From contig OZ244152.1 in the NCBI GenBank assembly GCA_965216125.1, positions 4,427,947 through 4,491,946 on the forward strand: a stretch of 64,000 nt of DNA. Direction: 5' to 3'. Numbering within the stretch: position 1 is the stretch's first letter; each line of letters begins with the position of its first letter. A model generated the notes under the pieces. It did no database searches. It saw only the letters and a list, made by a program, of their open reading frames with translations, and had not been told where the DNA came from. Made by a program: the position numbers and the translations under genes. The stretch comes from Candidatus Multivorans sp. (lineage in GTDB: Bacteria > Acidobacteriota > Thermoanaerobaculia > Multivoradales > Multivoraceae). Shown here in pieces: positions 20,594 to 54,633 of this stretch.

Positions 20594-20744
20594 CGACTCG
20601 GCTCCTGTTGGCTCCATGAAACAACATGTACCCTGCGCATCGGCGCGGCGAAGACGCCGCGACTCTACTGCTGACTGGCAAGGGTCCCTCCCGACGCGTC
20701 GGGACGGGAGCATTGTACCCGGCGGCGCCCGCCGCCGCCGCTGC

Positions 20745-22304
20745 CTAGCCTTCTTCTTCCTCGATCTTGCCCCAGCCGCCGCCGCCCGGCGTTTCCAGAA
20801 CCAGGAGGTCCCCCGGCTCGACGTCGGCCTGATCGACGGAGGCCAGTTCCCGTACGCCTCCGGCGGCGCGCCGGATACGGGCGCGACCGACGCTTCCGCA
20901 CTCGCCTCCGTCGACCCCGAAGGGCCGCTCCACCCGGTGCTGGCCGAGTACCGAGACCTGCTGCCGGGTCAGGAAGCGCAACTCACGCCGAAGACCGTCG
21001 CCGCCCGGGTACCTGCCGGCGCCTCCCGACCCCGGCCGCAGGCCGAATCGCTCGAGACGCACGGGATAGCGGTGCTCCAGCACTTCGGGATCGGTGATCC
21101 GCGTGTTCGTCATGTGCGTGTGGACGCCGCTGGCGCCGGCAAAGCCGGGACCGGCGCCGGCGCCCCCGCCGACCGTCTCGTAGTACCCGAAGGTGTCGTC
21201 GCCGAACAGCGTGTTGTTCATCGTGCCCTGCCCGCAGGCGCAGAGACCGAGCGCCCGCAGCAGCGTGTCGACGACCCGCTGGCTCGTCTCGACGTTGCCC
21301 CCGACCACTGCCGGGCAGCGCCTCGGGTCGGCCGAGAACTCGGGGTTCAGCATGCCGCGGGGGATCACGATTTCCACCGGCTCGAGCAGTCCCTCGTTGA
21401 GCTGCAACGGCACCCCGATCAGCAGCCGCAGGACATAGATCGTGGCGCTCCGGACGATCGCCGGGGTGGCGTTCAGGTTGCCCGGGTGAGTCGGGGCGCT
21501 GCCGGTGAAGTCGATCCGCGCCGAACCGCGCTCGATCGTCACCTCGACCTCGATCGGCGAGCCGTCGTCGAGCCGTTCGAGAGCATGGAAGGACTGGCGC
21601 CCCGTGCTCCGTACGTGTTCCTCCAGGGCGACCCGCATGCGGTCCGCGGCGCGCGAGTAGAGCGCCGACATGTAGCGGCGCACCTCGTCCTCGCCATGGT
21701 CCCGCGCAAGCTGCTGAAGCGCGGCCGCTCCACGCCGGTTGGCCGCCACCGCCGCGCCGAGATCGGCGAGATTCTCCGCTACCGAACGGGACGGCGAAGG
21801 ACCCCGGCGCAGCAGCGCCTCCATCTGCTCCCACTGGGGTTCGCCGGCCCGCACCAGGCGCTGCGGCGCGATGACCACCCCCTCCTCGGCCAGGTTCGCC
21901 GCCTTCGGCGGCATCGAGCCGGGTCGAATGCCGCCGAGCTCGGCGTGGTGGGCCCGGTTCGCGACGTAGCCGATCAGCCGGCCGTCCACGTGGACGGGGG
22001 CAATGACCGTGATGTCCGGCAGGTGGGACCCGCCATAGCCGGGATGGTTCGTGACCGCGACATCGCCGGGGTCGAGTTCGAGCTCGGCGGCGACACCGCG
22101 CACGCACTCGCCGAGGGCGCCCAGGTGCACCGGTATGTGCGGCGCGTTGACCAGCAGCCTGCCATCCGCATCGAGCAGGCCGCACGAGAAGTCGAGCCGC
22201 TCCTTGATGTTCACCGACATCGCGGTCCGCTGCAGCATCACGCCCATCTCGGACGCGATCGCCGCGAACCGATTCGAGAACAGCTCCAGCCGGACCGGAT
22301 CCAC
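20745..22304 (-). CDS. Hydantoinase B / oxoprolinase family protein (HyuB-type). No hyuA partner in the window.
   Basis: 519 aa with typical Hydantoinase_B core motifs. Confidence 0.85.
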   Translation of the reverse strand: MDPVRLELFSNRFAAIASEMGVMLQRTAMSVNIKERLDFSCGLLDADGRLLVNAPHIPVHLGALGECVRGVAAELELDPGDVAVTNHPGYGGSHLPDITVIAPVHVDGRLIGYVANRAHHAELGGIRPGSMPPKAANLAEEGVVIAPQRLVRAGEPQWEQMEALLRRGPSPSRSVAENLADLGAAVAANRRGAAALQQLARDHGEDEVRRYMSALYSRAADRMRVALEEHVRSTGRQSFHALERLDDGSPIEVEVTIERGSARIDFTGSAPTHPGNLNATPAIVRSATIYVLRLLIGVPLQLNEGLLEPVEIVIPRGMLNPEFSADPRRCPAVVGGNVETSQRVVDTLLRALGLCACGQGTMNNTLFGDDTFGYYETVGGGAGAGPGFAGASGVHTHMTNTRITDPEVLEHRYPVRLERFGLRPGSGGAGRYPGGDGLRRELRFLTRQQVSVLGQHRVERPFGVDGGECGSVGRARIRRAAGGVRELASVDQADVEPGDLLVLETPGGGGWGKIEEEEG

Positions 22305-22425
22305 GGACGGAGTCTACGCGGGCGGGCGTCGGCAAGCACTCCCGGCCCCCAAGTCGCTAAGGTACCGCTTCCAAACGAGCTGAGAAGACACCGGAACACG
22401 ACCCCGAAACCCCTCAGGAGCCGCC

Positions 22426-24051
<1,626 letters not shown>

Positions 24052-30019: not shown

Positions 30020-31267
30020 CTACCGCTTCGCTCTCTTGCCGAACATGATCCCCGCGACGCGGCGGATCTGGATCTCTTCCGATCCTTCGGTGATCCGGTA
30101 CCGCCGGTGGTGGCGGTAGATGTGCTCGAAGGGCATGTGGCGGGTGTAGCCGATGCCGCCGTGGGTCTGAATGGCGCGGTCGGCGGCGTCGCAGACCAGG
30201 CGATTCGCGCGGTAGTTGCACATGGAGACCTTGTCGGTCACTTCCATGTGGTGCTGCTGGTCGAGTTCCCAGGCGGTCTTGTAGACCAGGTTCCGCACCA
30301 TCTCGCATTCGGTCTGGAGTTCGGCGAGCGGGAACTGGATCGCCTGGTTGAGCCATAGCGGCTTGCCGAAGACCGTCCGCTTGCGGGCGTATTCGATGCT
30401 GCGGTCGATGCAGTACTGCGCGCCGCCGACGCCGGAGGCGGCCTGGCGGATGCGGTTCTCATGCACGAAGGTCTGCGCCAGGGCGAGGCCGCGGCCCTCC
30501 TCGCCGAGGATCGCGTCGTTCGGCACCCGGACTGCTGAGAGCGACACCTCGGCGTGGTCGGTCGGCATGTTGAACGTCCACCACATGAAGGGGATCTCGA
30601 AGCCGGGCGAGTTCGTCGGGACGATGAAACAGGTGACGCCGTCCGCCTGCCCGGGGTCGCCGGAGGTGCGGGCGAAGATCAGGTCGTGGGTGGCGGCGTG
30701 GAGGCCCGAGTTGAAGCGTTTGCCGCCGTCGATGATCCAGTCGTCACCGTCGCGGACTGCCGCGGTCTCGAGCCAGGTCGCGTCGGAGCCGTGGTCGGGC
30801 TCGGTCAGGCCGAAGCCCATCTTCACCGCGCCGGTCATCATGCCCTCCATGAACTGCGCCTTCTGGGCGGGCGTCCCGAAGCGGTGCATCATGATCACGG
30901 TCGGGAAGTTGCCGACGATCGAGGACTCGTTCTGCAGGTCGTTGTGCAGGCCCAGGCCCTTGGCGGCCAGGTGCTCCCGGATCACCGCCATCGCCAGGTT
31001 CGAGCCGTCCTGACCTCCCAGCTCCCGCGGAAGACCGAAACGAAGGTGGCCGACGGCGTCGGCACGCCGCTTCATCTCGCGAAGCAGGGCCTCCCACTCG
31101 GGCCGCGGCGTGCCGTCGTTCTCGAAGTCCGTCCGCGCCCACTCGCGGCGCTGATCGAAGAAACGGATGTTGTCGTCCTGCTGCTCGAGCGGCTTGATCT
31201 CGCGCTCGATGAAGTCGTCGAGTTCGGCCAGCTTGTCGCGGATGTCCTGGGGTATCTGGAAGTCCAT
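30020..31267 (-). CDS. Acyl-CoA dehydrogenase
   Basis: ACAD N, M and C domains. Catalytic glutamate region YRITEGSEEIQ. Confidence 0.9.
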   Translation of the reverse strand: MDFQIPQDIRDKLAELDDFIEREIKPLEQQDDNIRFFDQRREWARTDFENDGTPRPEWEALLREMKRRADAVGHLRFGLPRELGGQDGSNLAMAVIREHLAAKGLGLHNDLQNESSIVGNFPTVIMMHRFGTPAQKAQFMEGMMTGAVKMGFGLTEPDHGSDATWLETAAVRDGDDWIIDGGKRFNSGLHAATHDLIFARTSGDPGQADGVTCFIVPTNSPGFEIPFMWWTFNMPTDHAEVSLSAVRVPNDAILGEEGRGLALAQTFVHENRIRQAASGVGGAQYCIDRSIEYARKRTVFGKPLWLNQAIQFPLAELQTECEMVRNLVYKTAWELDQQHHMEVTDKVSMCNYRANRLVCDAADRAIQTHGGIGYTRHMPFEHIYRHHRRYRITEGSEEIQIRRVAGIMFGKRAKR

Positions 31268-31274: not shown

Positions 31275-32189
31275 CTACCCCGCTTCCAGGTAAGCGCCGA
31301 TGATCTCGGCCAGCCGTTCCGGCGCGTCGAAATGCACCATGTGGCCGGCTTCGGGGATCTCGACGTGGTGAACGTTGCGGAACAGGCGGACGCGACGCTC
31401 GATCTCGTCCGGCGCCGCCGGCGTGTCGTAGTCGATGCCGCCCCGGCCGCGGTAGAAGTCGGCCGAGCGGCCGCCGGTGATCACGAGCACCGGGCAAGCG
31501 ATCCAGGGCCAGCGCTCCGCCGACAACTGACTCGACATGGTCAGCCCGGTAGTCTCGACTTGCGGGTCCCACTTCCACTGCAAACCGCCGTACGGGTGCT
31601 CGGTGGTCCCGATCTCCACCAGGTGCCGCGCCAGGTCGTGGTCGAGACCCGGATGGAACCGGCAGTAGAGCCGCCAAGCGTCGTCCAGATCCATCATCGG
31701 CCGCTTGTGGCCCCCGGGCCGCAGCAAGCTCGTATGGCCGTTCTGCAGACGAAGCTGCCGGTTCTCGACCGGCATGTCGCTCTCGCGGAACGGCGCGCCG
31801 ACGCCGTCGATGTTCACGACCACACTGGGCACGTCGTTGAACACCGCGGCGTAGTGACTCACGATGTGACCGCCCAGGCTGTGGCCCACCAGCACCGGCC
31901 GCTCCAACTGGAGCTGGAAGATGACCGCGTGGAGATCGGCGATGAAGTGCGGCAGGGCGTAGACCCCCGGCTTGCCGCTGTCGCCGTGACCGCGTAGATC
32001 GAGCGAGACGACGCGGTAGCGGTCGCGGAACCGGTTCGCCAACGGCTCGAACGCCATCGCCAGATCCTGCATACCGTGCAGCAGGACCAGGGGCGGCGCC
32101 TCCGCGTTGCCGTAGTCGTAGACCTGCAGTTCGACACCGCCCGCGCCGGGCAGGCGGAGACTTTCGGGAGGTGAACTGTCCGTCGTCAT
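31275..32189 (-). CDS. Alpha/beta hydrolase fold protein. Start ATG at 32189; the track start at 32351 is probably too early.
   Basis: HGxxD, GHSLGG nucleophile elbow, C-terminal His. Confidence 0.8.
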   Translation of the reverse strand: MTTDSSPPESLRLPGAGGVELQVYDYGNAEAPPLVLLHGMQDLAMAFEPLANRFRDRYRVVSLDLRGHGDSGKPGVYALPHFIADLHAVIFQLQLERPVLVGHSLGGHIVSHYAAVFNDVPSVVVNIDGVGAPFRESDMPVENRQLRLQNGHTSLLRPGGHKRPMMDLDDAWRLYCRFHPGLDHDLARHLVEIGTTEHPYGGLQWKWDPQVETTGLTMSSQLSAERWPWIACPVLVITGGRSADFYRGRGGIDYDTPAAPDEIERRVRLFRNVHHVEIPEAGHMVHFDAPERLAEIIGAYLEAG

Positions 32190-32284
32190 GGGATTGGCGA
32201 GGATACGCCAAGCTCGGCGAACGGCTCGACGCGGACCGGTTATCCTTGCCGCTTCACCACCAAGCAGCCCCGAAGGAGCATCCG

Positions 32285-32818
32285 ATGAAGACGAACGTAT
32301 GGACTGTTGGAGCGATCGCGATACTGCTGCTTCCCGCCACCGTCGCGGCATCCGATCTGTCCGCCGAGAAGGCCTTCGAGCGACTCAAGGCCCTGGCCGG
32401 CACCTGGGAAGGATCGGCAAGCGGCGAGGGTGAGGAAGCCGAGGCCGAGGCGGATGCCGCCGTCCTCGTGGTCCACGAGTTCGAGGTCACCGCCAACGGC
32501 CATGTGTTGATGGAGCGCATGGGGCCGGACACCGAGTACGAGATGGTCAACATGTACCACCTCGACGGATCGGACCTCGTCCTCACCCACTACTGCTCGG
32601 CCGGCAACCAGCCGAGGATGAAGTTCAACGCCGCCACCAGCGCCCCAAACCGCCTGGTCTTCGATTTCCACGGCGGCACGAACCTGGACACCACCCCCAA
32701 CCACATCCACTCGGCGGAGATCCGGCTCGACGGCGAGAACAGGATCGACAGCGCATGGAAGGCCCACGAGGGAGACATGGAAGCCGGGACGATGACCTTC
32801 CACCTGAAGCGACGCTGA
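32285..32818 (+). CDS. Secreted hypothetical protein. Start ATG at 32285 with signal peptide MKTNVWTVGAIAILLLPATVAAS.
   Basis: Signal peptide and an acidic linker, then a conserved ~120-aa domain. Confidence 0.6.
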   Translation: MKTNVWTVGAIAILLLPATVAASDLSAEKAFERLKALAGTWEGSASGEGEEAEAEADAAVLVVHEFEVTANGHVLMERMGPDTEYEMVNMYHLDGSDLVLTHYCSAGNQPRMKFNAATSAPNRLVFDFHGGTNLDTTPNHIHSAEIRLDGENRIDSAWKAHEGDMEAGTMTFHLKRR

Positions 32819-32888
32819 GGAGTTCGGGACGAACCGGGCGGCGCGGCTTGCGGTTGCCCGACGTCATGCTTGTGCCTACAATGGTCAC

Positions 32889-33173
32889 ATGGTGACGGTT
32901 GGAGCAAGAGAACTCAAGACAAGGCTGGGCACGTACCTCCGGAGGGTGCGAGAGGGATCGGTGATTCTCGTGACCGAACGAGGACGACCGGTCGCCGAAC
33001 TGCGGCCCGTGCCGAAGGCCGCCTCGGACGAGGAGGAGAAGCTCCTCGACCTCGCGGCCAGGGGACTCGTGACCCTGGGGACCGCGCGCCTTGCGCCGTC
33101 CATCGAACCGGTCCAGGTGCGCGGCGGATCGGTCGCGACCACCATCGTCGAGGAACGAGACGACAGGTTCTGA
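32889..33173 (+). CDS. Phd/YefM-family antitoxin (second TA pair)
   Basis: 94 aa. One-nt stop/start overlap with the downstream PIN gene. Confidence 0.8.
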   Translation: MVTVGARELKTRLGTYLRRVREGSVILVTERGRPVAELRPVPKAASDEEEKLLDLAARGLVTLGTARLAPSIEPVQVRGGSVATTIVEERDDRF

Positions 33174-33604
33174 TGCTGTTTCTGGACGCGAGCGCTCTGG
33201 TGAAGCGGTACGTCGAGGAAGACGGATCGGAGTTGGTCATCGAAGCAATGGCCGGACAACCCGTGGCCATCAGCCGGCTATCGGCGACCGAGGTGGTCTC
33301 GGCAATCTGTCGGCGCTGCCGCGAAGGCGACATGCGGGTCGAACAGCGCGAAGCCGCCCTGCTCTCTCTCGACACCGAGCGCCCAGCCTTCCACGTGGTG
33401 GAGCTCACGGAAGAGATCACGACGAGGGCCGCAACGCTGCTGCGTCGGCACCCCCTGCGGGCGAGCGATTCGGTGCAGCTTGCCTCCTGCCTGTTGCTGG
33501 CCGATGAGCTGGGAACGCTTGCTCGCCTCGTCGCGTTCGACGACCGCCTCATGGGCGCCGCCCAGGCAGAGGGTGTCGAGTGCCTGGCCGTCGACGGCTC
33601 GTAG
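33173..33604 (+). CDS. vapC: PIN-domain toxin VapC (second copy)
   Basis: MLFLDASALVKRY with acidic PIN residues. Confidence 0.8.
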   Translation: MLFLDASALVKRYVEEDGSELVIEAMAGQPVAISRLSATEVVSAICRRCREGDMRVEQREAALLSLDTERPAFHVVELTEEITTRAATLLRRHPLRASDSVQLASCLLLADELGTLARLVAFDDRLMGAAQAEGVECLAVDGS

Positions 33605-33692: not shown

Positions 33693-34150
33693 ATGACAGA
33701 ATCCCGGAACGCCAACGCCCGCACGAATGGCCTCTACGGCGCGCATGGGCGGGCGCTGATGGTCGACATCTCGACCGGCGAACACCATGTGGAGACGATC
33801 CCGCCTGCCACGACGCCTGCAACCGGTACGGCATGGACACGGTGAGCTCCAGCGCCACGATCGCCTGGGTGTGCGAGGCCGTGGAACGCGGCGACCTCAC
33901 CACGAACGACCTCGACGGCGTCGAGATACGCTGGGGCAAGAGCGAGGCCGCCCTCGCCCTGACGATCAAGATGGGCGAGGGCGACGGACTTCTCGAAACC
34001 GGTCCGCTCGCCGGGGTTCAGCCGCCGCTCGAACAGTTGAAGCGAGACTACTACCAGGCGATGGACTGGGATCCCGACACCGGCCGGCTCAGCCGAGACC
34101 GCGCCGAGCAACTGGGCATGGCCGAGTTGCTGGACGCCCAACTGGCCTGA
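33693..34150 (+). pseudogene. Aldehyde:ferredoxin oxidoreductase (AOR, tungsten/molybdenum) remnant. About 460 bp remain of ~1.8 kb, with two internal deletions and one frameshift.
   Basis: N-terminal fragment LYGAHGRALMVDISTGEHHVETIP. Mid fragment CNRYGMDTVSSSATIAWVCEAVERG...IRWGKSEAALALTIKMGEGDGLLETGPLAG, in another frame. C-terminal fragment [31 protein letters not shown]. All match the AOR family in collinear order. Confidence 0.7.
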
Positions 34151-34175: not shown

Positions 34176-35930
34176 ATGGGTATCCTGCGCAGCCTGGTTC
34201 GCCCCCGTTCGGGCACGAAGATCCGCGTCCGGGTTTTGATCCGCGGCCGCATCGGAGCCGGCTGGCACGACGTCGACCGCACGTTCCGGCTGGCGCCCGG
34301 CGACACGCTGGCGGAGCTCCTGCCGGCCGCCGACCGTGCCGGTGTGCCGCTCTCCGAGGCGATCGAGAATTCCCCTCATCTGCGCGACACGCTGATGATC
34401 AACGGGGAGCGCTGCCCGCTGGAGACGAACCGCGAACGGCCGCTACGGAACGGCGACGAGATCTACCTGCTCGCACCCGTGGCGGGCGGCAGCGGCGGCC
34501 CCTGGGCGCAGGACAGCTTCGAGGCGCGACTGGATCGCGTGCTCCGGCGCGAGATCGACGGTTGCGAACGGCTGGCCGCGGTCGAACGGCTCTCGGGCGG
34601 CGCCAGCCAGGAGACCTACCGCCTGCGGATCGAAACGCAAGCCGGTGATCGCCAGCTCGCGCTCCGGCGATCCCAGGGCGGCAAGGAGCAAGAAGCCCGG
34701 GCCGTCGAGCGCAGCGCGCCCGGACTCCGGATCGAGGCGAAGCTGATGCAGGTCGCCCGAAGCAACGGCATCCCAGAGCCCGAGGTCTTCTACATCCTGG
34801 CGCCGGGCGACGATCTTGGGGGCGGCTTCGTCATGGAGTGGCTCGACGGCATCGCACTGGGTGCGCGGATCGTCCGCTCGCCCGACCTCGCCGAAGTCCG
34901 CCCCAAGCTGGCCCGGCAGTGCGGCGAGATCCTTGGCCGCCTGCACGCCATCGATCTGGAGGCTCAGGGTCTCGACCGCGACCTCGCACGCCTGAGCGCC
35001 GCCGACTTCATCGAGCAGACCCGGGGCCGCTACGAGGCCCTCGACACGCCGCAGCCGATGATCGACTTCACGGGACGCTGGCTCACCGAGAACCTTCCCG
35101 AGTCGACTGAACAGACCCTTGTTCACAACGACTTCCGCAACGGCAACCTGATGGTCGATCAGACGGGCGTCATCGCGGTGCTCGACTGGGAGATCGCCCA
35201 CATCGGCGACCCGATGCGCGACCTGGGCTGGATCTGCACGAATTCGTGGCGGTACGGCGCCGGCCCCGAACTGCCGGTCGGCGGCTTCGGTACCTACGAA
35301 GATCTGTTCGCCGGCTACGAGGCGACGAGCGGCCACCGGGTCGACCTGAGCCGGGTCAAGTACTGGGAGGTGTTCGGCTCCTACTGGTGGGCGGTCTCCA
35401 CTCTCGGCATGACCGAGGCCTATCGGATCGGCCCGGACCGCTCGGTCGAACGGGTCACGATCGGCCGCCGGACGACGGAGTGCCAGGTCGACTGCGTGAA
35501 TCTCCTCATCCCGGGGTCGGTCGAACTGGTGCAGGCCCCCGATCAACTCGCCGACCCCGACATGCCGCGGCTCGACGAACTCGTCGGCGCGACGCGCGAC
35601 TTCCTGCACGGCCCGGTGAGGGACGAAACGGCCGGGCGCACCCGGTTCCACGCCCTCGTCGCCGGCAACGCGCTCGACATCGTCTACCGGGACCTGCACT
35701 TCGGCGCCGAACACCGTCGCCGCGAACACGAACGTCTGCGCCGGCTGCTCGACGCGAACGGTTCTCTCCTGGAGTTGCGCTGGAAGCTCGTCCACGCGAT
35801 CCGCGACGACGCCATCGGGCTCGACGACAACTGTCTCCACGATCACCTCCGCGCCACCGTGGTCAACCAGATCGCCATCGACCAGCCGAAGTACTCGGGC
35901 TTCAAGACGGCCGCGGCCCGCCGAAGCTGA
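34176..35930 (+). CDS. MoaD/ThiS-like ubiquitin-fold domain (ends ...LLAPVAGG) fused in frame to an APH-type phosphotransferase (kinase) with a C-terminal helical extension
   Basis: Residues ~15–105 match the MoaD beta-grasp consensus, including the terminal GlyGly at 34485–34490. There is no stop codon; the frame continues through SGGPW into an APH kinase with HNDFRNGN and DWE motifs. Confidence 0.75.
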
Positions 35931-36002: not shown

Positions 36003-36593
36003 ATGAAGACGCATGCCATCCGCAGAGCCACCATCTCCGTCCTCGCGCTGGCACTTGTCGCTGCTTCGGTCTCGGCCCAGCGCCAGAGCGGGCCCCGCAT
36101 TCCGCCGGCCGAAGGGGTCCAGAGCATCAACCTCATCCGCACGCTCTCCCATCACCCACCGCTGATGGAGGCCTGGGGCCCGTTCGGCGGCTACATCCTG
36201 CGCGGCAGCACCCTGCCCGACCGCGACCGCGAGATGCTCATTCTGCGCACCGCGTGGCTGAACGAGGCCGAGTACGAGTGGGGACACCACAGCCGCGCCG
36301 CGAAAGCGGCCGGCATGACGGACGAGGAGATCCGCAACATCGCAGTCGGCGAGAACGCCGGGCCCTGGAGCAGCTTCGAGCGCTACCTCCTGCGCGCCGC
36401 GACCGAACTGCACCGGCGCTCGGCGATCTCGGAGCGCACCTGGGCCTTCGTCAAGGCCCGTTACAGCGACCAGCAGATGATCGACCTGATCTTCACCGTC
36501 GGCCAGTACCGGATGGTGTCGATGGCGCTCAGGAGCATCGGCGTCGAGCTCGACGAGGGGCTCGAACCCTTCCCGGACGTTCCGAGGCGCTAG
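36003..36593 (+). CDS. Carboxymuconolactone decarboxylase (AhpD-like) family protein with signal peptide
   Basis: CMD-family core around EYEWGHHSRAAKAAG. Confidence 0.8.
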   Translation: MKTHAIRRATISVLALALVAASVSAQRQSGPRIPPAEGVQSINLIRTLSHHPPLMEAWGPFGGYILRGSTLPDRDREMLILRTAWLNEAEYEWGHHSRAAKAAGMTDEEIRNIAVGENAGPWSSFERYLLRAATELHRRSAISERTWAFVKARYSDQQMIDLIFTVGQYRMVSMALRSIGVELDEGLEPFPDVPRR

Positions 36594-42787: not shown

Positions 42788-43534
42788 CTATGCGCGTGAG
42801 GGCGCTGCAACGTCGCCCACGATGACGACGCACGGGGGCTCGATCTGGCCGGAGAGGTTGCCGGCAGCGAGGGCGTCCAGGGTGGAGGAAATGACCCGCT
42901 GACCGGGGGTGGTTGCGCGTTCCACGATTGCAACCGGCGTCGAAGGGTCGCGGCCGGCTGCGATCAGGCCGACGCCGATGCGTCTTAGGCGCCGCGACGC
43001 CATGAGGACGACCACCGTGTCGGCGCCGGAGAGGCCCGCCCAGTCGGGTTCGCCGCCGTCCGCGTTGCGCGCGGAGACGACCGCGAAACCAAGCGAAACG
43101 CCGCGTCGGGTCAGTGGGATCCCAGTCACCGCAGCCGCTGCGGTAAGGCTGCTCACTCCCGGCACGACTTCACAGGGCACACCGGCGGACGCGCAGGCCT
43201 CGATCTCCTCGCCGCCGCGACCGAAGACGGCGGGATCGCCACCCTTGAGCCGCACCACGCGGGCCCCGGCCTGGGCGTGTTCGATCATCAGCCTCTCGAT
43301 CCGGCGTTGTCGGGCCTGCACCTCGTCGCCAGGCTGCTTGCCGACATCGACGATCTCGGCGCCCGCTTTCGCCTCGGCGAGAAGCTCAGGCGCCGCGAGG
43401 CGGTCATGCAGGACGACGTCAGCGGCCCGCAACCGCTTCAGGCCGAGAACCGTGATCAGGTCCGGGTCGCCCGGACCGGCCCCGATCAGGGTCACGCGTC
43501 CTGGAGCGCGGTTGGACGCTCTGGCGCCGCTCAT
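42788..43534 (-). CDS. cobA: Uroporphyrinogen-III C-methyltransferase (SUMT)
   Basis: GAGPGDPDLIT and VVRLKGGDP tetrapyrrole methylase motifs. Start at ATG 43534. Confidence 0.85.
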   Translation of the reverse strand: MSGARASNRAPGRVTLIGAGPGDPDLITVLGLKRLRAADVVLHDRLAAPELLAEAKAGAEIVDVGKQPGDEVQARQRRIERLMIEHAQAGARVVRLKGGDPAVFGRGGEEIEACASAGVPCEVVPGVSSLTAAAAVTGIPLTRRGVSLGFAVVSARNADGGEPDWAGLSGADTVVVLMASRRLRRIGVGLIAAGRDPSTPVAIVERATTPGQRVISSTLDALAAGNLSGQIEPPCVVIVGDVAAPSRA

Positions 43535-44229
43535 CAGTCCGGCGACTCCGGTGTGACTCCCATGATCTCCGAAGCCAGCCGGCAGGCTTCGGCGGTCCTG
43601 CCACCCCGAAGCAGAACGAGCACCTCCGAGTCCACGAGCTCGTACCAACGGCGCCGCCGTTCCTCGAACTCGGGTACCGCCCGCGCCAGAGGCCCCCGCA
43701 AACGGCCGGCGAACTCCAGCAGAGCGGCGTACTCCGGACCCAACTCCCGCTCAAGGCGTTGCCGGAGACGTACGGCCAGGGCCGGCGCCCGGCCCGAGGT
43801 CGAGATCGCGATCACCAAGTCGCCGCGCCGCACGATCGAGGGCGCGATGAAGCTGCAGTGATCCCGATCGTCCTCCACGTTGGCGAAGATGCGGCGCTCT
43901 TCCGCCTCGGCGAAGAACGCCTCGTCCCGGGAGGCGTCTCCCGGCTCCGCCAGGGCGAGCACCGCACCCTCCAGGTCGCCCGGAAGAAAGTCGCGCGCCC
44001 TGTGCTCGATCTCTCCGCCTTCGGCCAACCGCGCCAACCCAGGCGTCAGCTCCGGAGCGATGACCCGCACACGGGCCCCGCACGGCAGCAGGCCCGCCAC
44101 CTTCCGCTCGGCGATCGCGCCGCCGCCGACCACGACCACCCACCGCTCCGCCAGCGACAGATAAACCGGATAGTAGGCGGGAGGCCGACTATCGGCGCTC
44201 AACGTGGCTGCAGCACGTGGAGTCCGCAT
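43534..44229 (-). CDS. Precorrin-2 dehydrogenase / sirohydrochlorin ferrochelatase (CysG N-terminal / SirC-like)
   Basis: Rossmann motif VVVVGGGAIAERK. ATGA coupling to cobA. Overlaps the cysH 3' end. Confidence 0.75.
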   Translation of the reverse strand: MRTPRAAATLSADSRPPAYYPVYLSLAERWVVVVGGGAIAERKVAGLLPCGARVRVIAPELTPGLARLAEGGEIEHRARDFLPGDLEGAVLALAEPGDASRDEAFFAEAEERRIFANVEDDRDHCSFIAPSIVRRGDLVIAISTSGRAPALAVRLRQRLERELGPEYAALLEFAGRLRGPLARAVPEFEERRRRWYELVDSEVLVLLRGGRTAEACRLASEIMGVTPESPD

Positions 44230-44990
44230 TCCTTGCCGGTCTGGGACTCCCACCACCAGCGTCCGCCGCGGGCGCCTTCACCGGGCCGCGAGGGCCGCGT
44301 GCACGGTGCGCACCCGATCGTCCGGTAGCCGCGGTCGTAGAGCGGGTGGTACGGGACTCCCTGCTCGTGGATGTACGTCCAGACCTGATCCTCGGTCCAG
44401 TCGAGCAACGGGCAAACCTTGACCAGACGCCCCCTGGTCCGAGTCACCCGGTCGACCTCCACCTTGTTCAGAACATCCCGGGTCGGCGTCTGGTCGCGGC
44501 GAAGGCCGCTGAGCCAGGCCGGCGTGCGCGCCAGGGCCCGGCGCATCGGTTCCACCTTGCGCACGTTGCAGCAACGCTGCCTCCCGGCGACCGAGGCGTA
44601 GAAGAGATTCGGTCCCTCCTGCCGGACCAGGCGCGCAACTTCGGAGGCGCGCGGCGCCACCATCTCGACCTCGACGCCGTAGTGCAACCGCACGTGCTCG
44701 ATGTGCCGGTACGTATCCTCCGGCAGGCGGCCGGTGTCGAGCGTCACCGCGCGAACCGGCAGACCGAGCTGATGACACATATGAAGGAGGATCATGCCCT
44801 CCGCCTGAAACGACGTGGCCAGGGTCAACTCGCGGCCCCAGCGCCCGTGGGCCCAACGGAGCACCTGTTCGGGCGTCGCCGGTTCCAGCTCCATCGCCCA
44901 GCCGAGTACGCAGAGGTCGCCGTCGGCGGCCTGGCCCGGAAAGTCCAGAACGGCGCCGCCGAGGTCGCTCGGATGTGCTTCCTGCTGCAT
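44199..44990 (-). CDS. cysH: Phosphoadenosine phosphosulfate / APS reductase (thioredoxin-dependent, ECGLH motif)
   Basis: PAPS_reduct fold with C-terminal ECGLH. ATG at 44990 is preferred over TTG at 44999. Confidence 0.85.
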   Translation of the reverse strand: MQQEAHPSDLGGAVLDFPGQAADGDLCVLGWAMELEPATPEQVLRWAHGRWGRELTLATSFQAEGMILLHMCHQLGLPVRAVTLDTGRLPEDTYRHIEHVRLHYGVEVEMVAPRASEVARLVRQEGPNLFYASVAGRQRCCNVRKVEPMRRALARTPAWLSGLRRDQTPTRDVLNKVEVDRVTRTRGRLVKVCPLLDWTEDQVWTYIHEQGVPYHPLYDRGYRTIGCAPCTRPSRPGEGARGGRWWWESQTGKECGLHVLQPR

Positions 44991-45014
44991 TTGTGACAAA
45001 TACGATCACAAATG
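44988..45014. promoter_or_regulatory. 27-bp perfect inverted repeat CATTTGTGA-N9-TCACAAATG overlapping the cysH start codon; candidate operator
   Basis: The arms are exact reverse complements. It is AT-rich in a GC-rich genome and is followed by GTTGCAAC and GGGGCGCCCC palindromes. Confidence 0.4.
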
Positions 45015-45070
45015 TCTTTTGGTTGCAACGCAACGACCTGCGGGGCGCCCCGAGGGGGCCAAAACGGTGG

Positions 45071-46228
45071 TTACAACGCCCGCAGCGTCGCCGCCAAGGC
45101 CTCCAGATCCGAGCTGTCGTTGTAGACCTGAGGCGCAACCCGGATCGCCGTACCCCGAACCGACACGAAGACCCGGGCCTGCCGGAGGGCCGCCGCGGTG
45201 GCGTCCGCGTCCAGGCCGCGGCGGGACCGCAATCCGAACAGATGCGCGCCGCGCCACGCCCGATCCTCCAGCTCGAAACCCGCCTCGCTGAAGGCGTCCT
45301 CGAACGGTTCGAGCAGTTTCACGCAGTACTCCTGGATGCGCTCCGGGCGCCACTCGAGCACCATGTCCAGGGCGGCGTTCAGCATCGGCAACTGGATCTG
45401 GTTGCTGCGCTCGCCCACGTCGTAGCGCGCGGCGGCCGGCCGGTAGGACTCGACGTACTCGAGCCGCCCGGCGACGAACAACTCACTGCTTTCCCGGGCG
45501 GCCCAGGGCTCCTCCAGCGGAACGCCGTCGTCGTACCGCTCGCCGAACCACGCCAGACCGCTCTGGTACGGGCCGAACAGGGTCTTGTACCCGGCGACGA
45601 CCAGCGCGTCGGGCGCCACCTCCTCGATATCGAAGGGCATCGCGCCGATCGACTGCGTACCGTCGATGACGAACAGCGCGCCCACTTCGCGCGCCCGCCG
45701 CCCGACCGCCGCGACATCGAAGCGGGTGCCGTCCGCCCAGTGAACGACCGGCAGCGCAACGACCGCGGTGTCGCGATCGATCGCCTCCAGCAGCCGTTCG
45801 TTCCAGGCCGCGCCCGGGCTCGGATCCCCGGTCGCGGGCCGGTCCACCGCCCGCAGTTCCGCGCCGCTCTCCCCCGCCTTGCGCATCCACGCGTACACGT
45901 TGCTGGGGAACTGCTCGCCCAGGATGACGACGTTCTGCCCCCTGCCCACCGGAGCGTTGCGGGCCGCGGCCGCGATGCCATAGGACACCGCCGGGATGAT
46001 CGCGACCCGCCGCGGATCGGAACCCCCGATCAGCCGCGCGAAGCGCTCGCGCAGCGCGTCCGCCTGGTCGAAGAAATCGTCCGCGACGATCGTCGACGGG
46101 TCGCGCCGGCGCGCCATGCCCGCAAGCCCGGCCGCCTCGACTTCGCGCGCCAGGGGCGCCATGTAGGCGCAGTTCAGGTAGTGCAGGTCGGCCGGAAGCT
46201 GGAAGCGGTGTCGCTGGCAGTCGAGCAT
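45071..46228 (-). CDS. Class V aminotransferase-fold PLP enzyme (cysteine desulfurase / selenocysteine lyase-like)
   Basis: Aminotran_5 fold. Start ATG at 46228; the track N-terminal extension is a low-complexity shadow. Confidence 0.8.
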   Translation of the reverse strand: MLDCQRHRFQLPADLHYLNCAYMAPLAREVEAAGLAGMARRRDPSTIVADDFFDQADALRERFARLIGGSDPRRVAIIPAVSYGIAAAARNAPVGRGQNVVILGEQFPSNVYAWMRKAGESGAELRAVDRPATGDPSPGAAWNERLLEAIDRDTAVVALPVVHWADGTRFDVAAVGRRAREVGALFVIDGTQSIGAMPFDIEEVAPDALVVAGYKTLFGPYQSGLAWFGERYDDGVPLEEPWAARESSELFVAGRLEYVESYRPAAARYDVGERSNQIQLPMLNAALDMVLEWRPERIQEYCVKLLEPFEDAFSEAGFELEDRAWRGAHLFGLRSRRGLDADATAAALRQARVFVSVRGTAIRVAPQVYNDSSDLEALAATLRAL

Positions 46229-46254
46229 GGCCGGCGATCTTACGCGCGGCGCCG

Positions 46255-47571
46255 CTATGCGGCGGCCAGGGCGCGGTCGAGGTCGCGGATCAGGTCGTCC
46301 ACCGTCTCCAGGCCGATCGAGAGCCGCACCACCTCCGGCCCGGCGCCGGCGGCGGCGCGTTGCTCGTCGCTCAGTTGACGGTGGGTGGTCGAGGCCGGAT
46401 GGAGGATCAGGGAGCGCGCGTCGCCGACGTTCGCCAGGTGGGAGAAGAGGTCGCAAGCCTCCACGACCCGGATCCCGGCGTCGTAGCCGCCGCGGACGCC
46501 GAAAGTGAACACCGCGCCCCCGCCCTTCGGCAGGTACTTCGCGGCCAGGTCCCGGTAGGGGCTTTCGGGCAAGCCGGCGTACGACACCCACTCGACCTTC
46601 GGGTGCTCCCGCAGCCACTCGGCGACCTGCTGCGCGTTCCGGCAGTGACGCTCCATGCGCAGCGCCAGGGTCTCGATGCCGAGCAGGATCAGGAACGCGT
46701 TCATCGGCGCCATCGCGGCGCCCAGGTCGCGCAGGCCGACCGCGTGAGCATGGGTGGTGAACGCGAGATCGCCGAAGGTCTCGCTGAACTTCAGGCCGTG
46801 GTAGGCCGGTTCCGGTTCCGAGAGCCCGGGAAAGCGTCCGGAGGCAGCCCAGTCAAAGCGTCCGCTGTCGATCACGCCTCCGCCGATCACCGTGCCGTTG
46901 CCGGACAGGAACTTGGTCGCGGAGTGGACCACCAGGTCGGCGCCCCAGTCCATCGGCCGGCAGAGCCAGGGGGTGGCCAGCGTGTTGTCGACGATGAGCA
47001 CCGCGCCCGCCGCCCTGGTCAGCCCGGCCAGCGTCTCGAGATCCGAAACAACGCCGCCCGGGTTGGCCAGGCTCTCGACGAACAGCGCCTTGGCGCCCGC
47101 GTCCAGGGCCGCCTCGACCGCGGCCAGGTCGTCCGTGTCGACGAAGTCGCACCGCCAGTCGAACTTCTGGAACGTCCTGCTGAACTGGGTGATCGACCCG
47201 CCATAGAGCCGGCGCGACGCGGCGAACCGGGCGCCGGGCTCCATCAGGGGGAAGAACGCGAGGAGCTGGGCGGCGTGACCCGAGGCGCAGCAGGCGGCGC
47301 CGCGTCCGCCTTCCAGGCTCGCCAGCCGTTGCTCCAGCGCCGCGACCGTGGGGTTGCCCAGGCGCGAGTAGATGAACCCGAAGGTCTGGAGATTGAACAA
47401 CGAAGCGGCGTGGTCCACGTCGTGAAACGCATAGGCCGTGTTCTGGTAGATCGGCGTCTGCCGAGCGCCGGTGATCGGCTCGGGCGCGGCACCCGCGTGG
47501 ATCATCCGGGTTTCGAAGCCCCAACCGGGATCCGCCTTCCGGTCCGGGTCCCGCCCGGCTCGCCCGCTCAC
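46255..47571 (-). CDS. metY: O-acetylhomoserine / O-acetylserine sulfhydrylase (Cys/Met metabolism PLP enzyme)
   Basis: GFETR...HAG N-terminus and the PLP-lysine region SATKFLSGNG. The proposed GTG start at 47571 overlaps the upstream stop by 4 nt. Confidence 0.85.
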   Translation of the reverse strand: MSGRAGRDPDRKADPGWGFETRMIHAGAAPEPITGARQTPIYQNTAYAFHDVDHAASLFNLQTFGFIYSRLGNPTVAALEQRLASLEGGRGAACCASGHAAQLLAFFPLMEPGARFAASRRLYGGSITQFSRTFQKFDWRCDFVDTDDLAAVEAALDAGAKALFVESLANPGGVVSDLETLAGLTRAAGAVLIVDNTLATPWLCRPMDWGADLVVHSATKFLSGNGTVIGGGVIDSGRFDWAASGRFPGLSEPEPAYHGLKFSETFGDLAFTTHAHAVGLRDLGAAMAPMNAFLILLGIETLALRMERHCRNAQQVAEWLREHPKVEWVSYAGLPESPYRDLAAKYLPKGGGAVFTFGVRGGYDAGIRVVEACDLFSHLANVGDARSLILHPASTTHRQLSDEQRAAAGAGPEVVRLSIGLETVDDLIRDLDRALAAA

Positions 47572-48098
47572 CCGGACCCTCCGCGCCCAGGCGCCTGCAC
47601 CAGCCGCGGGCGCCGGCTGGAGATGACGCCGCTGTCGATGCCGCCCCAGCCCAGCTCGCCCCACAGCCGCCCGTACTCGATCTTCGGGCAGCGGTCCATG
47701 ATCACCGTGAGCCCGGCGGCCTCCGCCTCGGCCGCGGCTTCGTCGTTGCGCACGCCGAGCTGCATCCAGACCACCTCGATGCGCTTCTCCTCCCGCAGCC
47801 GGATGGCCTCCCGGGTCGTCTCCAGGGCCGCGTCCGAGCTGCGGAAGACGTCGACCATGTCCACCGGCGCCGGCGCCTCGGCCAGGGACGCGCAGGCCCG
47901 CTCGCCCAGGATCGAAACCCCTTGAGCCGCCGCCCGGGGATTCACCGGAATCACGCGGTAGCCCTTCTCCTGCAGGTACTTCATGGCGAAGTTCGAGGGC
48001 CGCTTCCAGTTCGGCGACGCGCCCACCATGGCGATCGTCCGCACCCGGCGGAGGATGCCGGCGATCAGGGCGTCGCTGTAGCGCAGGGCGGAGGCCAC
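47568..48098 (-). CDS. CoA-binding domain protein (YccU/YneT-like)
   Basis: CoA_binding_2 fold, 176 aa. Confidence 0.8.
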   Translation of the reverse strand: MASALRYSDALIAGILRRVRTIAMVGASPNWKRPSNFAMKYLQEKGYRVIPVNPRAAAQGVSILGERACASLAEAPAPVDMVDVFRSSDAALETTREAIRLREEKRIEVVWMQLGVRNDEAAAEAEAAGLTVIMDRCPKIEYGRLWGELGWGGIDSGVISSRRPRLVQAPGRGGSG

Positions 48099-49315: not shown

Positions 49316-50485
49316 CTATCTCGGCGGATGTCTGGCCAGCGCCTCTTCGTCCGGCTCCGTACCCCAGCCGGGCCTCCCAGGCACGACCAGATAGCCGCCT
49401 TCCTCGAACTCGGGCTCGTGGGTGAATATCTCGCCGTCCCACGGCAGCCGGTCGATGTCCGTCTCCATGATCCGCAGGTTCGGCACCGCGGCGCTCATGT
49501 GGGCGTTCATCATCGTCGCCAGGTGGCCGTAGTAGTTGTGCGGCGCCACGTTGACCTCGTAGGCGGCCGCCAGGGCGGCAATCTTCATCGACTGCCAGAC
49601 GCCGTTCCAGACCGCGTCGATGATCGCCACGTCGACCGCCTCGGCGCGCAGGTACGGCAGGAAGGCGGCGCTCCCGATCAGGGTCTCACAGGAGCTGATC
49701 GGGTGCGCGCTCTCCTGCCGCACCGTCGCCAGTCCGTCCGCTGAGGGCGTGTCGATCTCCACCCAGAAAAGATCGAGATCCGCGAGCGCCCGCACGATCT
49801 GGCGGTAGCCCGAGATCTTGGCGTTGAAGTTGAGGTCGAGCAGGATGTCGACGTCGGGCCCGGCCCCCTCGCGCAGCGCTTCGAGGTGCCGACGCAGGTT
49901 CGAAATGACCTTGCGGTCGACGTTCTGGCCTGGGTCGAACGGGCGGCCGAAGCCGGGCGCCCAGCCGCGCGGCGAACCGCTGCTGTAGTCGAAGATGTTC
50001 GTCTTGAGCGCGGTGAAGCCGCGTTCGCGGACCTCCGCGCCGAGCGCCACGACGCCGTCGATGTCGGCAATCGCGTTCCCGTAGACCTGCGGCAGCGCGA
50101 TCCGCCAGGTCGCGCAGTGCGACCAGTACACGCGTACCCGGTCCCGCACCCGTCCACCGAGCAGGTCGCAGCAGGGGACGCCCAGCTCCTTGGCCCGGGC
50201 GTCGAGTACCGCGTTCTCGATCGCGCCGATCGCCATCGCCATGACACCCGACATCGACTGCCGCGCACGGGTCAGCAGGCGCTGGTAGATCCGCTCCAGG
50301 TCGGCGACCCGCATGCCCACGACCAGCTCCCCCAACTGCTCGATCACCGTGGTGACGCCGAGCGCGCCCTGGTGCTGGTCGTACTCGCTCCAGCCGACGA
50401 TTCCATCGTCGGTGGTGAGCTTCACGAAGTGGTAGTTCCGCCACCCCGCGTCGCAGTGGCGGGTTTCGATCTTGGCGACCTTCAT
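49316..50485 (-). CDS. Enolase-superfamily mandelate racemase / muconate-lactonizing-enzyme-like dehydratase
   Basis: MR_MLE N and C domains. ATG at 50485; ATGA coupling with the upstream gene. Confidence 0.85.
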   Translation of the reverse strand: MKVAKIETRHCDAGWRNYHFVKLTTDDGIVGWSEYDQHQGALGVTTVIEQLGELVVGMRVADLERIYQRLLTRARQSMSGVMAMAIGAIENAVLDARAKELGVPCCDLLGGRVRDRVRVYWSHCATWRIALPQVYGNAIADIDGVVALGAEVRERGFTALKTNIFDYSSGSPRGWAPGFGRPFDPGQNVDRKVISNLRRHLEALREGAGPDVDILLDLNFNAKISGYRQIVRALADLDLFWVEIDTPSADGLATVRQESAHPISSCETLIGSAAFLPYLRAEAVDVAIIDAVWNGVWQSMKIAALAAAYEVNVAPHNYYGHLATMMNAHMSAAVPNLRIMETDIDRLPWDGEIFTHEPEFEEGGYLVVPGRPGWGTEPDEEALARHPPR

Positions 50486-51669
50486 GGGGTGCTCCTCTCC
50501 GTGGGCGAATGATCGCCGAGCCACTCGGCGACGACCTCTTCCGTATCGCGGCCAAGTTCGCAGCTCGGTTCGAGCGGGCCGGACGACTGACCGTCGAAGC
50601 GTAGCGGGCTCGTCGGCAGGGTGACCTCGCCCAGCGTCGGGTGGTCGAGGGTCTCCAGGAAACCGCGCTCCAGCAGGTGCGGATCCGCGTTCACCTCGGC
50701 CAGATCGCGCACCGGCGCGCACGGCACGTGGCAGTCGCGGGCGGCCCGGCAGACCTCCGCCCGGCTTCTGGTCGCGGTCCAGGCGGAGACCACGTCTTCC
50801 GCCTCCTCCATGTGGGCCACGCGCGCCTCGTTGTTCTCAAAGCGCGGATCGGAGGCCAGTTCCTCCCGACCCATCGCCTGCAGCAGGTTCCGCCAGTGCC
50901 CCTCGTTGACGCAGATGATGGCCACGAAACCGTCGTTGCACGGGTAGACGTCGTACGGGGAGACCCGGCCGTGCCGGTTGCCGATCCGTTCCGGAGGCCG
51001 GCCGTCGTTGTGCATCAGGGCGAGCTTCGAGAGCATGCTCGGGTAGACCGCCTCCTGCATCGCCACTTCGACCAGACGTCCCCGGCCGGTCCGCTCGCGC
51101 TCGTAGAGAGCGCTGACGACTCCTCCGTACAGATGGACGCCGCCGAGGAAGTCGATCAGCGCCGGCCCGGCCTTGAGTGGCGGGCGCCCGGCCTCGCCGG
51201 TGATGCTCATCACGCCGGAAGACGCCTGCACCGTGATGTCCATGCCCAGGCGGTCCCGATCCGGGCCGCTCAGACCGTACGCGGTGCCCGAGGCGTAGAT
51301 CAGCCGCGGGTTGAGTTCCCGCAGCCGTTCCCAGCCGACGCCGAGTCGGTCCAGCACGCCGGGCGCGAAGTTCTCGACCAGCATGTCGGCGACCGTCGCC
51401 AGCCGGCGCAGCAGGTCCCGCCCGTCCTCCACCTTGAGGTCGCAGACCACCGAACGCTTGTTCGAGTTCAGGAACGCGAGCGGGAACGACGGCGGCCCGC
51501 CGTGGACCTCCCGGCGGCGTAGCGGCTCCCCGCCAGGCGGTTCGACCTTGACCACGTCGGCCCCGGCCTGGGCAAGCAGGAAGCCGGCGTACGGCCCCTG
51601 GTAGATCTGCCCCAGGTCGAGGACGCGAACTCCCGCAAGAGGCTTCGGAGCCTGTGATTCACCGCTCAC
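50482..51669 (-). CDS. Family III CoA-transferase (CaiB/BaiF)
   Basis: GVRVLDLG N-terminus and the catalytic Asp region. Confidence 0.85.
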   Translation of the reverse strand: MSGESQAPKPLAGVRVLDLGQIYQGPYAGFLLAQAGADVVKVEPPGGEPLRRREVHGGPPSFPLAFLNSNKRSVVCDLKVEDGRDLLRRLATVADMLVENFAPGVLDRLGVGWERLRELNPRLIYASGTAYGLSGPDRDRLGMDITVQASSGVMSITGEAGRPPLKAGPALIDFLGGVHLYGGVVSALYERERTGRGRLVEVAMQEAVYPSMLSKLALMHNDGRPPERIGNRHGRVSPYDVYPCNDGFVAIICVNEGHWRNLLQAMGREELASDPRFENNEARVAHMEEAEDVVSAWTATRSRAEVCRAARDCHVPCAPVRDLAEVNADPHLLERGFLETLDHPTLGEVTLPTSPLRFDGQSSGPLEPSCELGRDTEEVVAEWLGDHSPTERSTP

Positions 51670-51685
51670 GGCGCCGCCCGGATCC

Positions 51686-52852: not shown

Positions 52853-52856
52853 CGGC

Positions 52857-53216
52857 TTACCTCCCAGGCGCCGCGATCCGGCCGACGCCTATCCGGCCGA
52901 CGCGCCGCTCGCCGCGGTCCGCGTTGCCCGGCGGCAACTCGCCGTGGTCGGCGAAGTAGACGGCGAGCAACTCCTCGAAGCGGCTCCAGTACTGCATGGT
53001 CACTTCGTACCGGAACCGCGCCGCCCCCTCATGCTTCGCGGCCGTCTCCGCGACGGCGCTGCGCAGCCCGAAGCGGGACCGCCCGCCCGCGAAGCCCAGC
53101 TCCAGGGCGCCGCCTTCCGCGTCACCGATCTCGAACACACCCAACTGCCCGGGCAGCGCGGCGATCGCGGCATCGTCCAACTCGCGCCAGGGTTTCGTCA
53201 GCCGGACCTCGGTCAT
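52857..53216 (-). CDS. Hypothetical small protein (119 aa) between ACAD and CoA-transferase genes
   Basis: ORF only; no recognised domain. Confidence 0.35.
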   Translation of the reverse strand: MTEVRLTKPWRELDDAAIAALPGQLGVFEIGDAEGGALELGFAGGRSRFGLRSAVAETAAKHEGAARFRYEVTMQYWSRFEELLAVYFADHGELPPGNADRGERRVGRIGVGRIAAPGR

Positions 53217-53316
53217 CGGCCGGGATGGTATCCCGCACTCCGGGGTCGCGGCCCTGTGTCACAATCCCGACCGCTCTGGACACAACCCGCCAACCTCCGC
53301 GCGGCGAGAAGCCGGC

Positions 53317-54570: not shown

Positions 54571-54633
54571 CGATCCCGGATTCTCGGACTACAATCCCCC
54601 CTTCCCGACCGAACGCCACGCAGGAGACGAGCC

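Follow-up and report, generated by a model that had tools for sequence, protein, structure and literature searches.

An old in-frame fusion of a MoaD-like beta-grasp domain to an APH-type kinase in the family Candidatus Multivoraceae

Ubiquitin has prokaryotic relatives in the beta-grasp proteins that act as sulfur carriers, whose chemistry relies on a free Gly-Gly at the C-terminus. Why should such a Gly-Gly be buried in front of a 479-residue unrelated enzyme and yet be invariant across a whole bacterial family? The question is raised by an open reading frame (ORF) in a 64,000-nucleotide stretch of the genome of Candidatus Multivorans sp. (contig OZ244152.1, positions 4,427,947 to 4,491,946; hereafter the window). 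A first reading of the letters alone (the original prediction) had described it as a MoaD/ThiS-type domain read through its diglycine into a kinase of the APH family, and had left open whether this was a genuine fusion or the product of a stop codon lost while an adjacent locus, coding for the aldehyde-oxidising enzyme AOR and a MoaD protein, decayed. What we found is a gene fusion in frame that is old and specific to one lineage, the family Ca. Multivoraceae. MoaD and other ubiquitin-like (Ubl) fusions with an internal Gly-Gly are already known; new are the unrelated kinase partner and its confinement to one family of uncultured Acidobacteriota. A literature search on 'Candidatus Multivorans' found no paper.

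Domain organisation of the fusion gene

The fusion ORF encodes one polypeptide and has a gene-like codon composition (GC content at third codon positions, GC3, of 0.88). Its parts are as follows:

34176..35930, + strand: complete fusion ORF of 584 aa (MoaD-like beta-grasp, linker, APH kinase and DUF6285), from the ORF list, Pfam and alignments
34176..34217, + strand: N-terminal tail, residues 1-14, present in the stand-alone MoaD-like family too; low model confidence
34218..34490, + strand: MoaD/ThiS-type beta-grasp domain, residues 15-105, with the C-terminal end LLAPVAGG, from Pfam, relatives, a family profile and an AlphaFold2 (AF2) model
34485..34490, + strand: Gly104-Gly105 codons GGC GGC, the C-terminus of stand-alone relatives but internal here
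34491..34517, + strand: linker SGGPWAQDS, residues 106-114, variable in length and sequence, always in frame
34518..35525, + strand: APH-type small-molecule kinase domain, residues ~115-450 (Pfam APH part at residues 136-383, 34581-35324)
35124..35147, + strand: catalytic loop HNDFRNGN, residues 317-324 (H317, D319, N324), invariant in the alignment
35184..35192, + strand: DWE metal-binding motif, residues 337-339 (D337, E339), invariant in the alignment
35625..35894, + strand: DUF6285 helical C-terminal domain, residues 484-573, from Pfam; also present in all unfused orthologs

The predicted read-through was confirmed in the DNA from position 34485 onward: Gly105 is followed by the codons AGC GGC GGC CCC TGG (SGGPW), a stop codon is absent, and, with 479 residues after Gly105, the Gly-Gly is internal and not the free C-terminus of the translated protein. 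The kinase assignment likewise stood, with a Pfam match of APH (PF01636) to residues 136-383 at E = 1.4e-38 (133 bits against a cut-off of 23.2 bits) and with the HxDxxxxN and DWE motifs intact; HNDFRNGN and DWE were unchanged across the fused and unfused relatives aligned. DUF6285 matched residues 484-573 with E = 3.7e-26. Compared with PDB sequences, the kinase was closest to 9o56 and 3dxp, with the ACAD11 kinase domain next in rank (8v3v, E = 2.9e-10; 8v3u, E = 3.7e-9), and its fold was closest to 3dxp, a 25-hydroxysteroid kinase (9fsg) and Rv3168 (3ats); judged by sequence and model, it is an APH-type small-molecule hydroxyl kinase. The full-length AF2 model had a mean pLDDT of 80.7, with values below 50 at residues 100-107, which are predicted to be disordered between two folded parts, so that the Gly-Gly/linker junction is predicted to be flexible.

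With the first 105 residues as query, >500 proteins were matched, and the best 120 of these were stand-alone proteins, mostly of 93-117 aa, with 56-81% identity (E = 1e-31 to 1e-47); several stand-alone relatives carry PF02597 and MoaD/ThiS family names from their sources. Sixteen of 20 aligned stand-alone relatives stop exactly at LLAPxAGG, and the remaining four have 3-27 extra residues. A profile of the stand-alone family matched MoaD/ThiS chains in the PDB (best 6jbz_B, E = 2.6e-4; also 4n6e_B, ThiS 1f0z and Pyrococcus MoaD 1vjk), and the Gly-Gly fell on the final two residues of every chain. An AF2 model of the segment 1-108 (pLDDT 82.8) showed the strand and helix order of a beta-grasp, and its top PDB match in Foldseek was the mycobacterial MoaD 6jbz_B (E = 2.7e-4; TM score 0.74, target-normalised), followed by SUMO, SAMP1, Urm1 and archaeal ubiquitin. 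The proposal of a MoaD/ThiS beta-grasp at residues ~15-105 with a terminal Gly-Gly was thus borne out by relatives, family profile and structure prediction.

All three stand-alone relatives inspected in their contigs lay 3' of a 670-721-aa AOR gene, immediately so apart from a predicted arylsulfotransferase-like gene that intervenes at one of the three loci, and these sequence relationships support a derivation of the N-terminal domain from a moaD gene linked to AOR. In the survey of Iyer, Burroughs and Aravind (2006), the MoaD genes that directly adjoin an AOR gene form a class, and the authors proposed, in the passages considered here, that such a MoaD makes molybdopterin for the AOR tungsten cofactor; the linkage has also been noted for aorD/aorE of Aromatoleum aromaticum and TK1065 of Thermococcus kodakarensis. 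The closest relatives of the N-terminal domain, stand-alone proteins of ~100 aa that share 60-72% identity with it (E = 1e-31 to 1e-36) and finish at LLAPxAGG, are of exactly this kind and an AOR gene adjoins the fusion too, but here the Gly-Gly is internal, a kinase follows, and the AOR of the window is dead. The same passages describe an Azoarcus MoaD fused to the C-terminus of AOR, in which the Gly-Gly stays free, and a kinase fused downstream of a MoaD Gly-Gly is absent among the architectures given in them.

Distribution of the fusion and selection on its parts

A search with the whole protein returned >50 clusters of 581-604 aa with 77-99% identity and 97-100% query coverage, whereas the next relatives had 60-66% identity, were 466-487 aa long and began at about residue 110. 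A genome survey with one genome per species matched 37 loci, which belong to Ca. Multivorans, Ca. Multivoraceae and unclassified Thermoanaerobaculia/Acidobacteria metagenome-assembled genomes (MAGs); many MAGs of the fused clade bear isolate names that we take to be typical of sponge metagenomes. Apart from L033 and the 5' end of L004 (loci are numbered L, proteins P), every locus has one uninterrupted frame that begins at a conserved start (MGLLR), passes APVAGG and continues into the kinase. Since the fused frame is open across the junction in ~36 independent assemblies, including complete chromosomes of 4-5 Mb, it is no sequencing error. The comparison of orthologs that the original prediction had called for found the genes fused in ~36 species-level genomes of the clade and, outside it, stand-alone moaD-like genes and unfused kinase genes; none of the fused relatives has an in-frame stop after the Gly-Gly, where the stand-alone MoaD-like relatives mostly end. 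When the profile of the N-terminal domain was run against 1.84 billion representatives, 79 proteins were matched, among which the only kinase-sized protein with a complete domain at its N-terminus was P0058 (564 aa), a representative of the fused clade. Leaving aside a few matches of 159-214 aa and two proteins of ~1,750 aa with partial or repeated matches, the Multivoraceae clade is the only one in this search in which the domain is fused to a kinase.

Both halves of the protein are under purifying selection, the Gly-Gly included, and the linker between them is neutral. Nei-Gojobori estimates of the ratio of nonsynonymous to synonymous substitution rates (dN/dS) over 32 genomes were 0.35 for the N-terminal tail, 0.17 for beta-grasp codons 15-105, 0.97 for linker codons 106-114, 0.17 for the kinase, the same as for the MoaD part, and 0.15 for DUF6285. 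The residues after the Gly-Gly differ by lineage (SGGPW, SGRDAW, SGSGGAW, SGRGAGSGSGGW, GPGGGPGGDEAW, SGGGPADGAEPGSGDW and SGSSGDSSGR) and the linker ranges from ~7 to ~20 residues, with all insertions and deletions preserving the frame; residue 106 is Ser in 27 of 32 fused sequences. Twenty-two positions are invariant among 52 stand-alone relatives, and 20 of these, G104 and G105 among them, are also invariant in 32/32 fused sequences. The fusion of a MoaD-like domain to a kinase is therefore genuine, being conserved in ~36 species-level genomes with purifying selection on either side of the junction.

The AOR and acyl-CoA dehydrogenase neighbours

The original prediction had offered decay of the AOR/MoaD locus as a possible cause of the fusion, and a decayed AOR gene does lie directly upstream of it. 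The neighbours that bear on the history of the locus are the following:

33693..34150, + strand: AOR pseudogene remnant in three fragments and two frames, corresponding to residues 1-37, 398-459 and 631-689 of a 689-aa ortholog, from Pfam and ortholog alignment
30020..31267, - strand: acyl-CoA dehydrogenase (ACAD), whose orthologs lie directly 5' of unfused kinase genes in other lineages
31275..32351, - strand: alpha/beta hydrolase, in conserved synteny with the ACAD across the fused clade
36003..36593, + strand: CMD-family gene (carboxymuconolactone decarboxylase/peroxidase-related), the next gene 3' of the fusion at almost every locus of the clade
32889..33604, + strand: Phd-family antitoxin (32889-33173) and PIN-domain toxin (33176-33604), flanked by the upstream genes on one side and the AOR remnant on the other

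In the deepest lineages, L001 and L002, the gene order is ACAD (-), alpha/beta hydrolase (-), AOR of 688-689 aa (+), fusion (+), CMD-family gene (+) and a luciferase-like gene (-). A full-length AOR match was found at 29 fused loci, where the AOR stop lies ~22 nt upstream of the fusion ATG, and the intact AOR genes have a dN/dS of ~0.1. AOR is fragmentary or absent also in L003, L004, L007/L037, L018 and L033; the remnants differ from one another and the genomes concerned are scattered over the tree (L003, for example, is sister to the AOR-intact L039), which indicates several independent losses. Because dN/dS of the AOR remnants (0.14-0.44) is barely raised over that of the same codons in intact genes (0.10-0.30), these losses must be recent. 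The fusion, being present in the deepest branches and at 29 loci with an intact AOR under selection, long predates them, and AOR decay was rejected as its cause. The Phd/PIN pair may have played a part in the rearrangements by which AOR was lost. A promoter-like site belonging to this pair (32854-32882) is a possible source of transcription for the fusion gene, and no terminator-like site was found on the + strand between the two; both statements are based on consensus matches only.

The kinase appears to have had another neighbour. At 11 unfused loci, including L051 of the same order (Ca. Multivoradales), the kinase is immediately preceded by an ACAD gene on the same strand, and these ACADs are 60-63% identical to that of the window, which stands on the opposite strand 2.9 kb from the kinase. 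All unfused kinase orthologs are without a MoaD-like domain, and their start, M-x-D-x-x-F-x-x-R-L-D, aligns with W-A-x-D-S-F-E-A-R-L-D of the fused proteins, so that in most lineages only three or four residues separate the Gly-Gly from the former kinase start. The original prediction had likened this pairing to ACAD10/ACAD11. In those mammalian enzymes and in LvaA/LvaC of Pseudomonas putida, a 4-hydroxyacyl-CoA is phosphorylated and the phosphate is then eliminated; ACADs of this type have a catalytic Asp, described as Asp753, and an Arg/His/Arg helix specific to ACAD10/11 and LvaC. The analogy held in part: as in both systems, an APH-type kinase is paired genetically with an ACAD, and the kinase matches the ACAD11 kinase domain. 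It is, however, nearer to 9o56 and 3dxp and carries an additional DUF6285, and ordinary ACADs matched the ACAD of the window more strongly (E = 3e-50) than ACAD11 did (E = 2e-32). In an alignment with 4u83, a Glu of this ACAD (ITEGSEE) falls on the canonical YEG catalytic base, where ACAD10/11 have Asp; neither score ranking nor catalytic residue supported an ACAD10/11-type enzyme. We therefore regard the ACAD10/11 scheme, into which the genetic pairing of kinase and ACAD fits, as a lead and not as membership.

Taken together, these observations suggest the following origin. In an ancestor of Ca. Multivoraceae (Thermoanaerobaculia, Acidobacteriota), a cassette of AOR and a moaD-like gene would have been placed directly upstream of the APH/DUF6285 kinase gene; as the kinase gene would formerly have followed its partner ACAD, the cassette presumably landed between the two, and the ACAD is now inverted. 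The moaD stop would then have been lost, and a few spacer codons would have become the neutral Gly/Ser-rich linker.

Fate of the Gly-Gly junction

We favour an account in which a true, ancient fusion joined an AOR-linked moaD to the kinase and the two halves work independently (probability roughly 0.6). The MoaD-like half would still act, as carrier or maturation factor, in providing the adjacent AOR with its pterin cofactor, a role proposed for AOR-linked MoaD genes, and the kinase half would act with the ACAD, as its unfused orthologs may do, on a small molecule, probably the hydroxyl of an acyl-CoA-related compound. Since carrier chemistry needs a free Gly-Gly carboxylate, release by cleavage is the likely route, and by analogy with MoaX and the Deinococcus MoaD-MoaE fusion it would most likely take place by endoproteolysis after Gly105 (GG|S), yielding two proteins at 1:1. 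Release at the Gly-Gly as in MoaX is plausible, although we put the chance that this fusion is in fact cut there at a little under even.

The precedents for cleavage come from molybdopterin synthesis. MoaX of Mycobacterium tuberculosis is cut between Gly82 and Ser83 and requires this cut for activity, and the MoaD-MoaE fusion DR2607 of Deinococcus radiodurans is cleaved by the JAMM protease DRJAMM, where cleavage is likewise a condition of activity. Both resemble the present protein in their N-terminal MoaD-type beta-grasp, the Gly-Gly at the junction, the small residue that follows (here Ser106) and a flexible junction, which is predicted here; they differ in that their C-terminal partner is MoaE, the functional partner of MoaD, and not an unrelated APH kinase with DUF6285, that the MoaD-like part here comes from a separate, AOR-linked family, and that no protease was found in the window. 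The gene-neighbourhood class of sulfur carriers with JAMM proteases is likewise covered in the passages of Iyer, Burroughs and Aravind (2006) considered here.

Among sulfur-carrier precursors, CysO (with Mec+) and QbsE (with QbsD) have a C-terminal extension that is removed by a JAMM protease. As in these systems and the archaeal SAMPs, extra residues mask the Gly-Gly here and would have to be removed before activation; there the extension is one to few residues long and the protease is encoded in the operon, whereas here it is a 479-residue enzyme with no protease nearby. Eukaryotes make ubiquitin in part from fusions with ribosomal proteins (UBA52, RPS27A), which are cleaved by dedicated deubiquitinases. 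Here too, a ubiquitin-fold N-terminal part is joined at Gly-Gly to an unrelated protein with, if cleaved, a 1:1 output, but dedicated deubiquitinases and the role of ubiquitin as a protein modifier belong to the eukaryotic case. Whether it is a bacterial counterpart of these genes, in which a MoaD-type carrier would serve as the cleavable leader of a kinase and be freed by a Gly-Gly-specific protease encoded elsewhere, we consider doubtful. If it were, the arrangement would fix the output of AOR maturation factor and kinase at 1:1, and aldehyde oxidation by AOR might be tied to a kinase/ACAD route for hydroxy-acyl compounds.

Several observations weigh against a carrier that is still released and still serves AOR. 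No JAMM/MPN, ThiF/MoeB-type or MoaE gene was present among the ~45 predicted genes of the 64-kb window (Pfam), nor among the called genes of the 15-kb neighbourhoods of L001 and L002. The direct Pfam match to ThiS (PF02597) was weak (residues 39-105, E = 6.6e-4, 20.6 bits, below the gathering cut-off of 22.5 bits), and the AOR-linked MoaD-like family has unusually many invariant residues for MoaD (GRIG.GW, SPHL, NGERC), including His and Cys. Cys80 (34413-34415), which all 52 stand-alone proteins share, has given way to another residue in four fused sequences (Ser in L015, Arg in L017/L038, Tyr in L020), and Gly93 in one (Arg in L009), so the original function may be partly relaxed. Finally, five genomes without a functional AOR, the window included, retain an intact MoaD-like domain with all invariant residues; this fits a recent AOR loss and would also fit a role independent of AOR.

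Some of these points lend weight to the strongest competing explanation, a permanent two-domain protein in which the beta-grasp is never released and is re-used in cis, for docking, regulation, solubility or as a tether between kinase and AOR, the Gly-Gly being structural. The missing protease and E1-type genes nearby, the intact domain in AOR-less genomes, the Cys80 replacements and the identical dN/dS of MoaD part and kinase speak for such a protein, but we hold it to be unlikely for the following reasons. Domains held in a fixed geometry are not usually joined by a neutral linker that varies from ~7 to ~20 residues, the hallmark residues of the stand-alone carrier family stay invariant up to the terminal AGG, and retention of the domain without AOR carries little weight because the AOR losses are recent. 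Moreover, the kinase is found intact without the domain, both in the unfused orthologs and inside the fused clade. In L033, a deletion (L033 6990-7010) that starts at the end of a 215-aa gene upstream and reaches approximately codon 100 of the fusion has taken away both AOR and the beta-grasp, and the remaining kinase of 492 aa (P0056) is otherwise intact and starts at a GTG, the former Val102, five bases after GAGGA. This locus is a natural kinase-only derivative of the fusion, and it follows from it that the kinase does not need the MoaD-like domain and is separable from it. The 215-aa gene, at 32171-32818 in the window and at the same position in L004 and L033, encodes a signal-peptide-like N-terminus and had no Pfam or NCBIfam match.

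Other loci without AOR suggest that the value of the MoaD-like domain is tied to that enzyme. In L004 (6685-7050), everything between PIN codon 14 and fusion codon 17 has been deleted, with loss of the native start and the first residues, so that the domain is damaged in 2/7 AOR-less and 0/29 AOR-intact genomes (hand-calculated p ~0.03; the events are not independent, as the same deletions may have removed AOR). In a test for relaxed selection, pairwise dN/dS of the MoaD part among AOR-less genomes (0.11-0.27) was not clearly unlike that of the rest of the gene. Rare amino-acid changes per site, relative to the rest of the protein, were nevertheless more frequent in the domain in these genomes (1.9 versus 0.92; Fisher p 0.018, a crude count), an excess that is suggestive only because L007/L037 are near-duplicates and the AOR losses are recent. 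As AOR decayed recently in the window, the MoaD-like part there is probably a leftover leader that supplies the only conserved start codon of the gene. One scaffold may have undone the fusion: L087, a 2403-nt TARA scaffold that branches within the fused clade, has two distinct ORFs (1383-2403) that share 11 nt. One encodes a MoaD-like protein of 117 aa with 12 residues beyond the Gly-Gly; the other encodes the kinase, which has its own ATG (MRADFEARLE) and LND instead of HND in the catalytic loop. Between the Gly-Gly and the conserved FEARL lie 40 nt, a length that does not keep the frame, and the arrangement may reflect a genuine re-split of the gene, decay of this copy or faulty assembly. 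With repeated AOR loss, one domain deletion and one apparent re-split, the locus amounts to a natural experiment. If the carrier is cut free, it points to a processing activity for fusions of Ubl domains to heterologous proteins and offers a simple natural model for the origin of ubiquitin-fusion genes; if it is not, this AOR-linked family of MoaD-like proteins can do without a free C-terminus, and such genes would have to be interpreted differently.

A kinase made separately without proteolysis, by translation from an internal start near the junction with the fused frame incidental, is very improbable. NCBI annotation does begin P0053 and P0055 at MINGERC and P0056 at MAGGSG, and L033 does use the GTG at Val102, but this codon is GTG in only 14 of 32 genomes and GTC, GTT or GTA elsewhere, which led us to reject a conserved internal kinase start. 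Met74 is also invariant in the stand-alone relatives, so its conservation is uninformative on initiation. The linker indels are always in frame, which would be needless if the two frames were independent, and the MoaD part would still have no free Gly-Gly. A recent accident or artefact, with a stop lost or misread during decay of AOR and moaD and a junk N-terminal extension, could appeal to the AOR pseudogene of the window but is as good as refuted, given the same open frame in ~36 assemblies, including complete chromosomes, the basal lineages L001 and L002 and 29 AOR-intact genomes, and purifying selection on a MoaD part that keeps its family-invariant residues.

A practical consequence of the fusion concerns annotation, since automatic pipelines truncate some of these genes at internal starts and thereby hide the domain. 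NCBI names P0053, P0055 and P0056 only 'phosphotransferase', and the internal starts conceal the MoaD-like domain, the short form of P0056 (L033) being real. Elsewhere in the window, a 683-aa ORF at 12123-14174 has marginal composition (GC2, at second codon positions, 0.60; GC3 0.79) and no Pfam match and may be no real gene. Genes of sulfur-assimilation type at 43534-47664 (- strand; a sirohaem synthase-like protein, PAPS reductase, a class-V aminotransferase resembling cysteine desulfurase and a PLP enzyme of O-acetylhomoserine sulfhydrylase type) also follow the locus in L002, and no link between them and the MoaD-like domain was found. The window is rich in genes of acyl-CoA metabolism (18722-24051 and 50482-61455), including three further ACADs (18722-20713, with a C-terminal domain of ACAD9/VLCAD type, 51686-52852 and 54634-55863), two family-III CoA-transferases, an enoyl-CoA hydratase, an AMP-binding ligase and a PQQ-dependent dehydrogenase.

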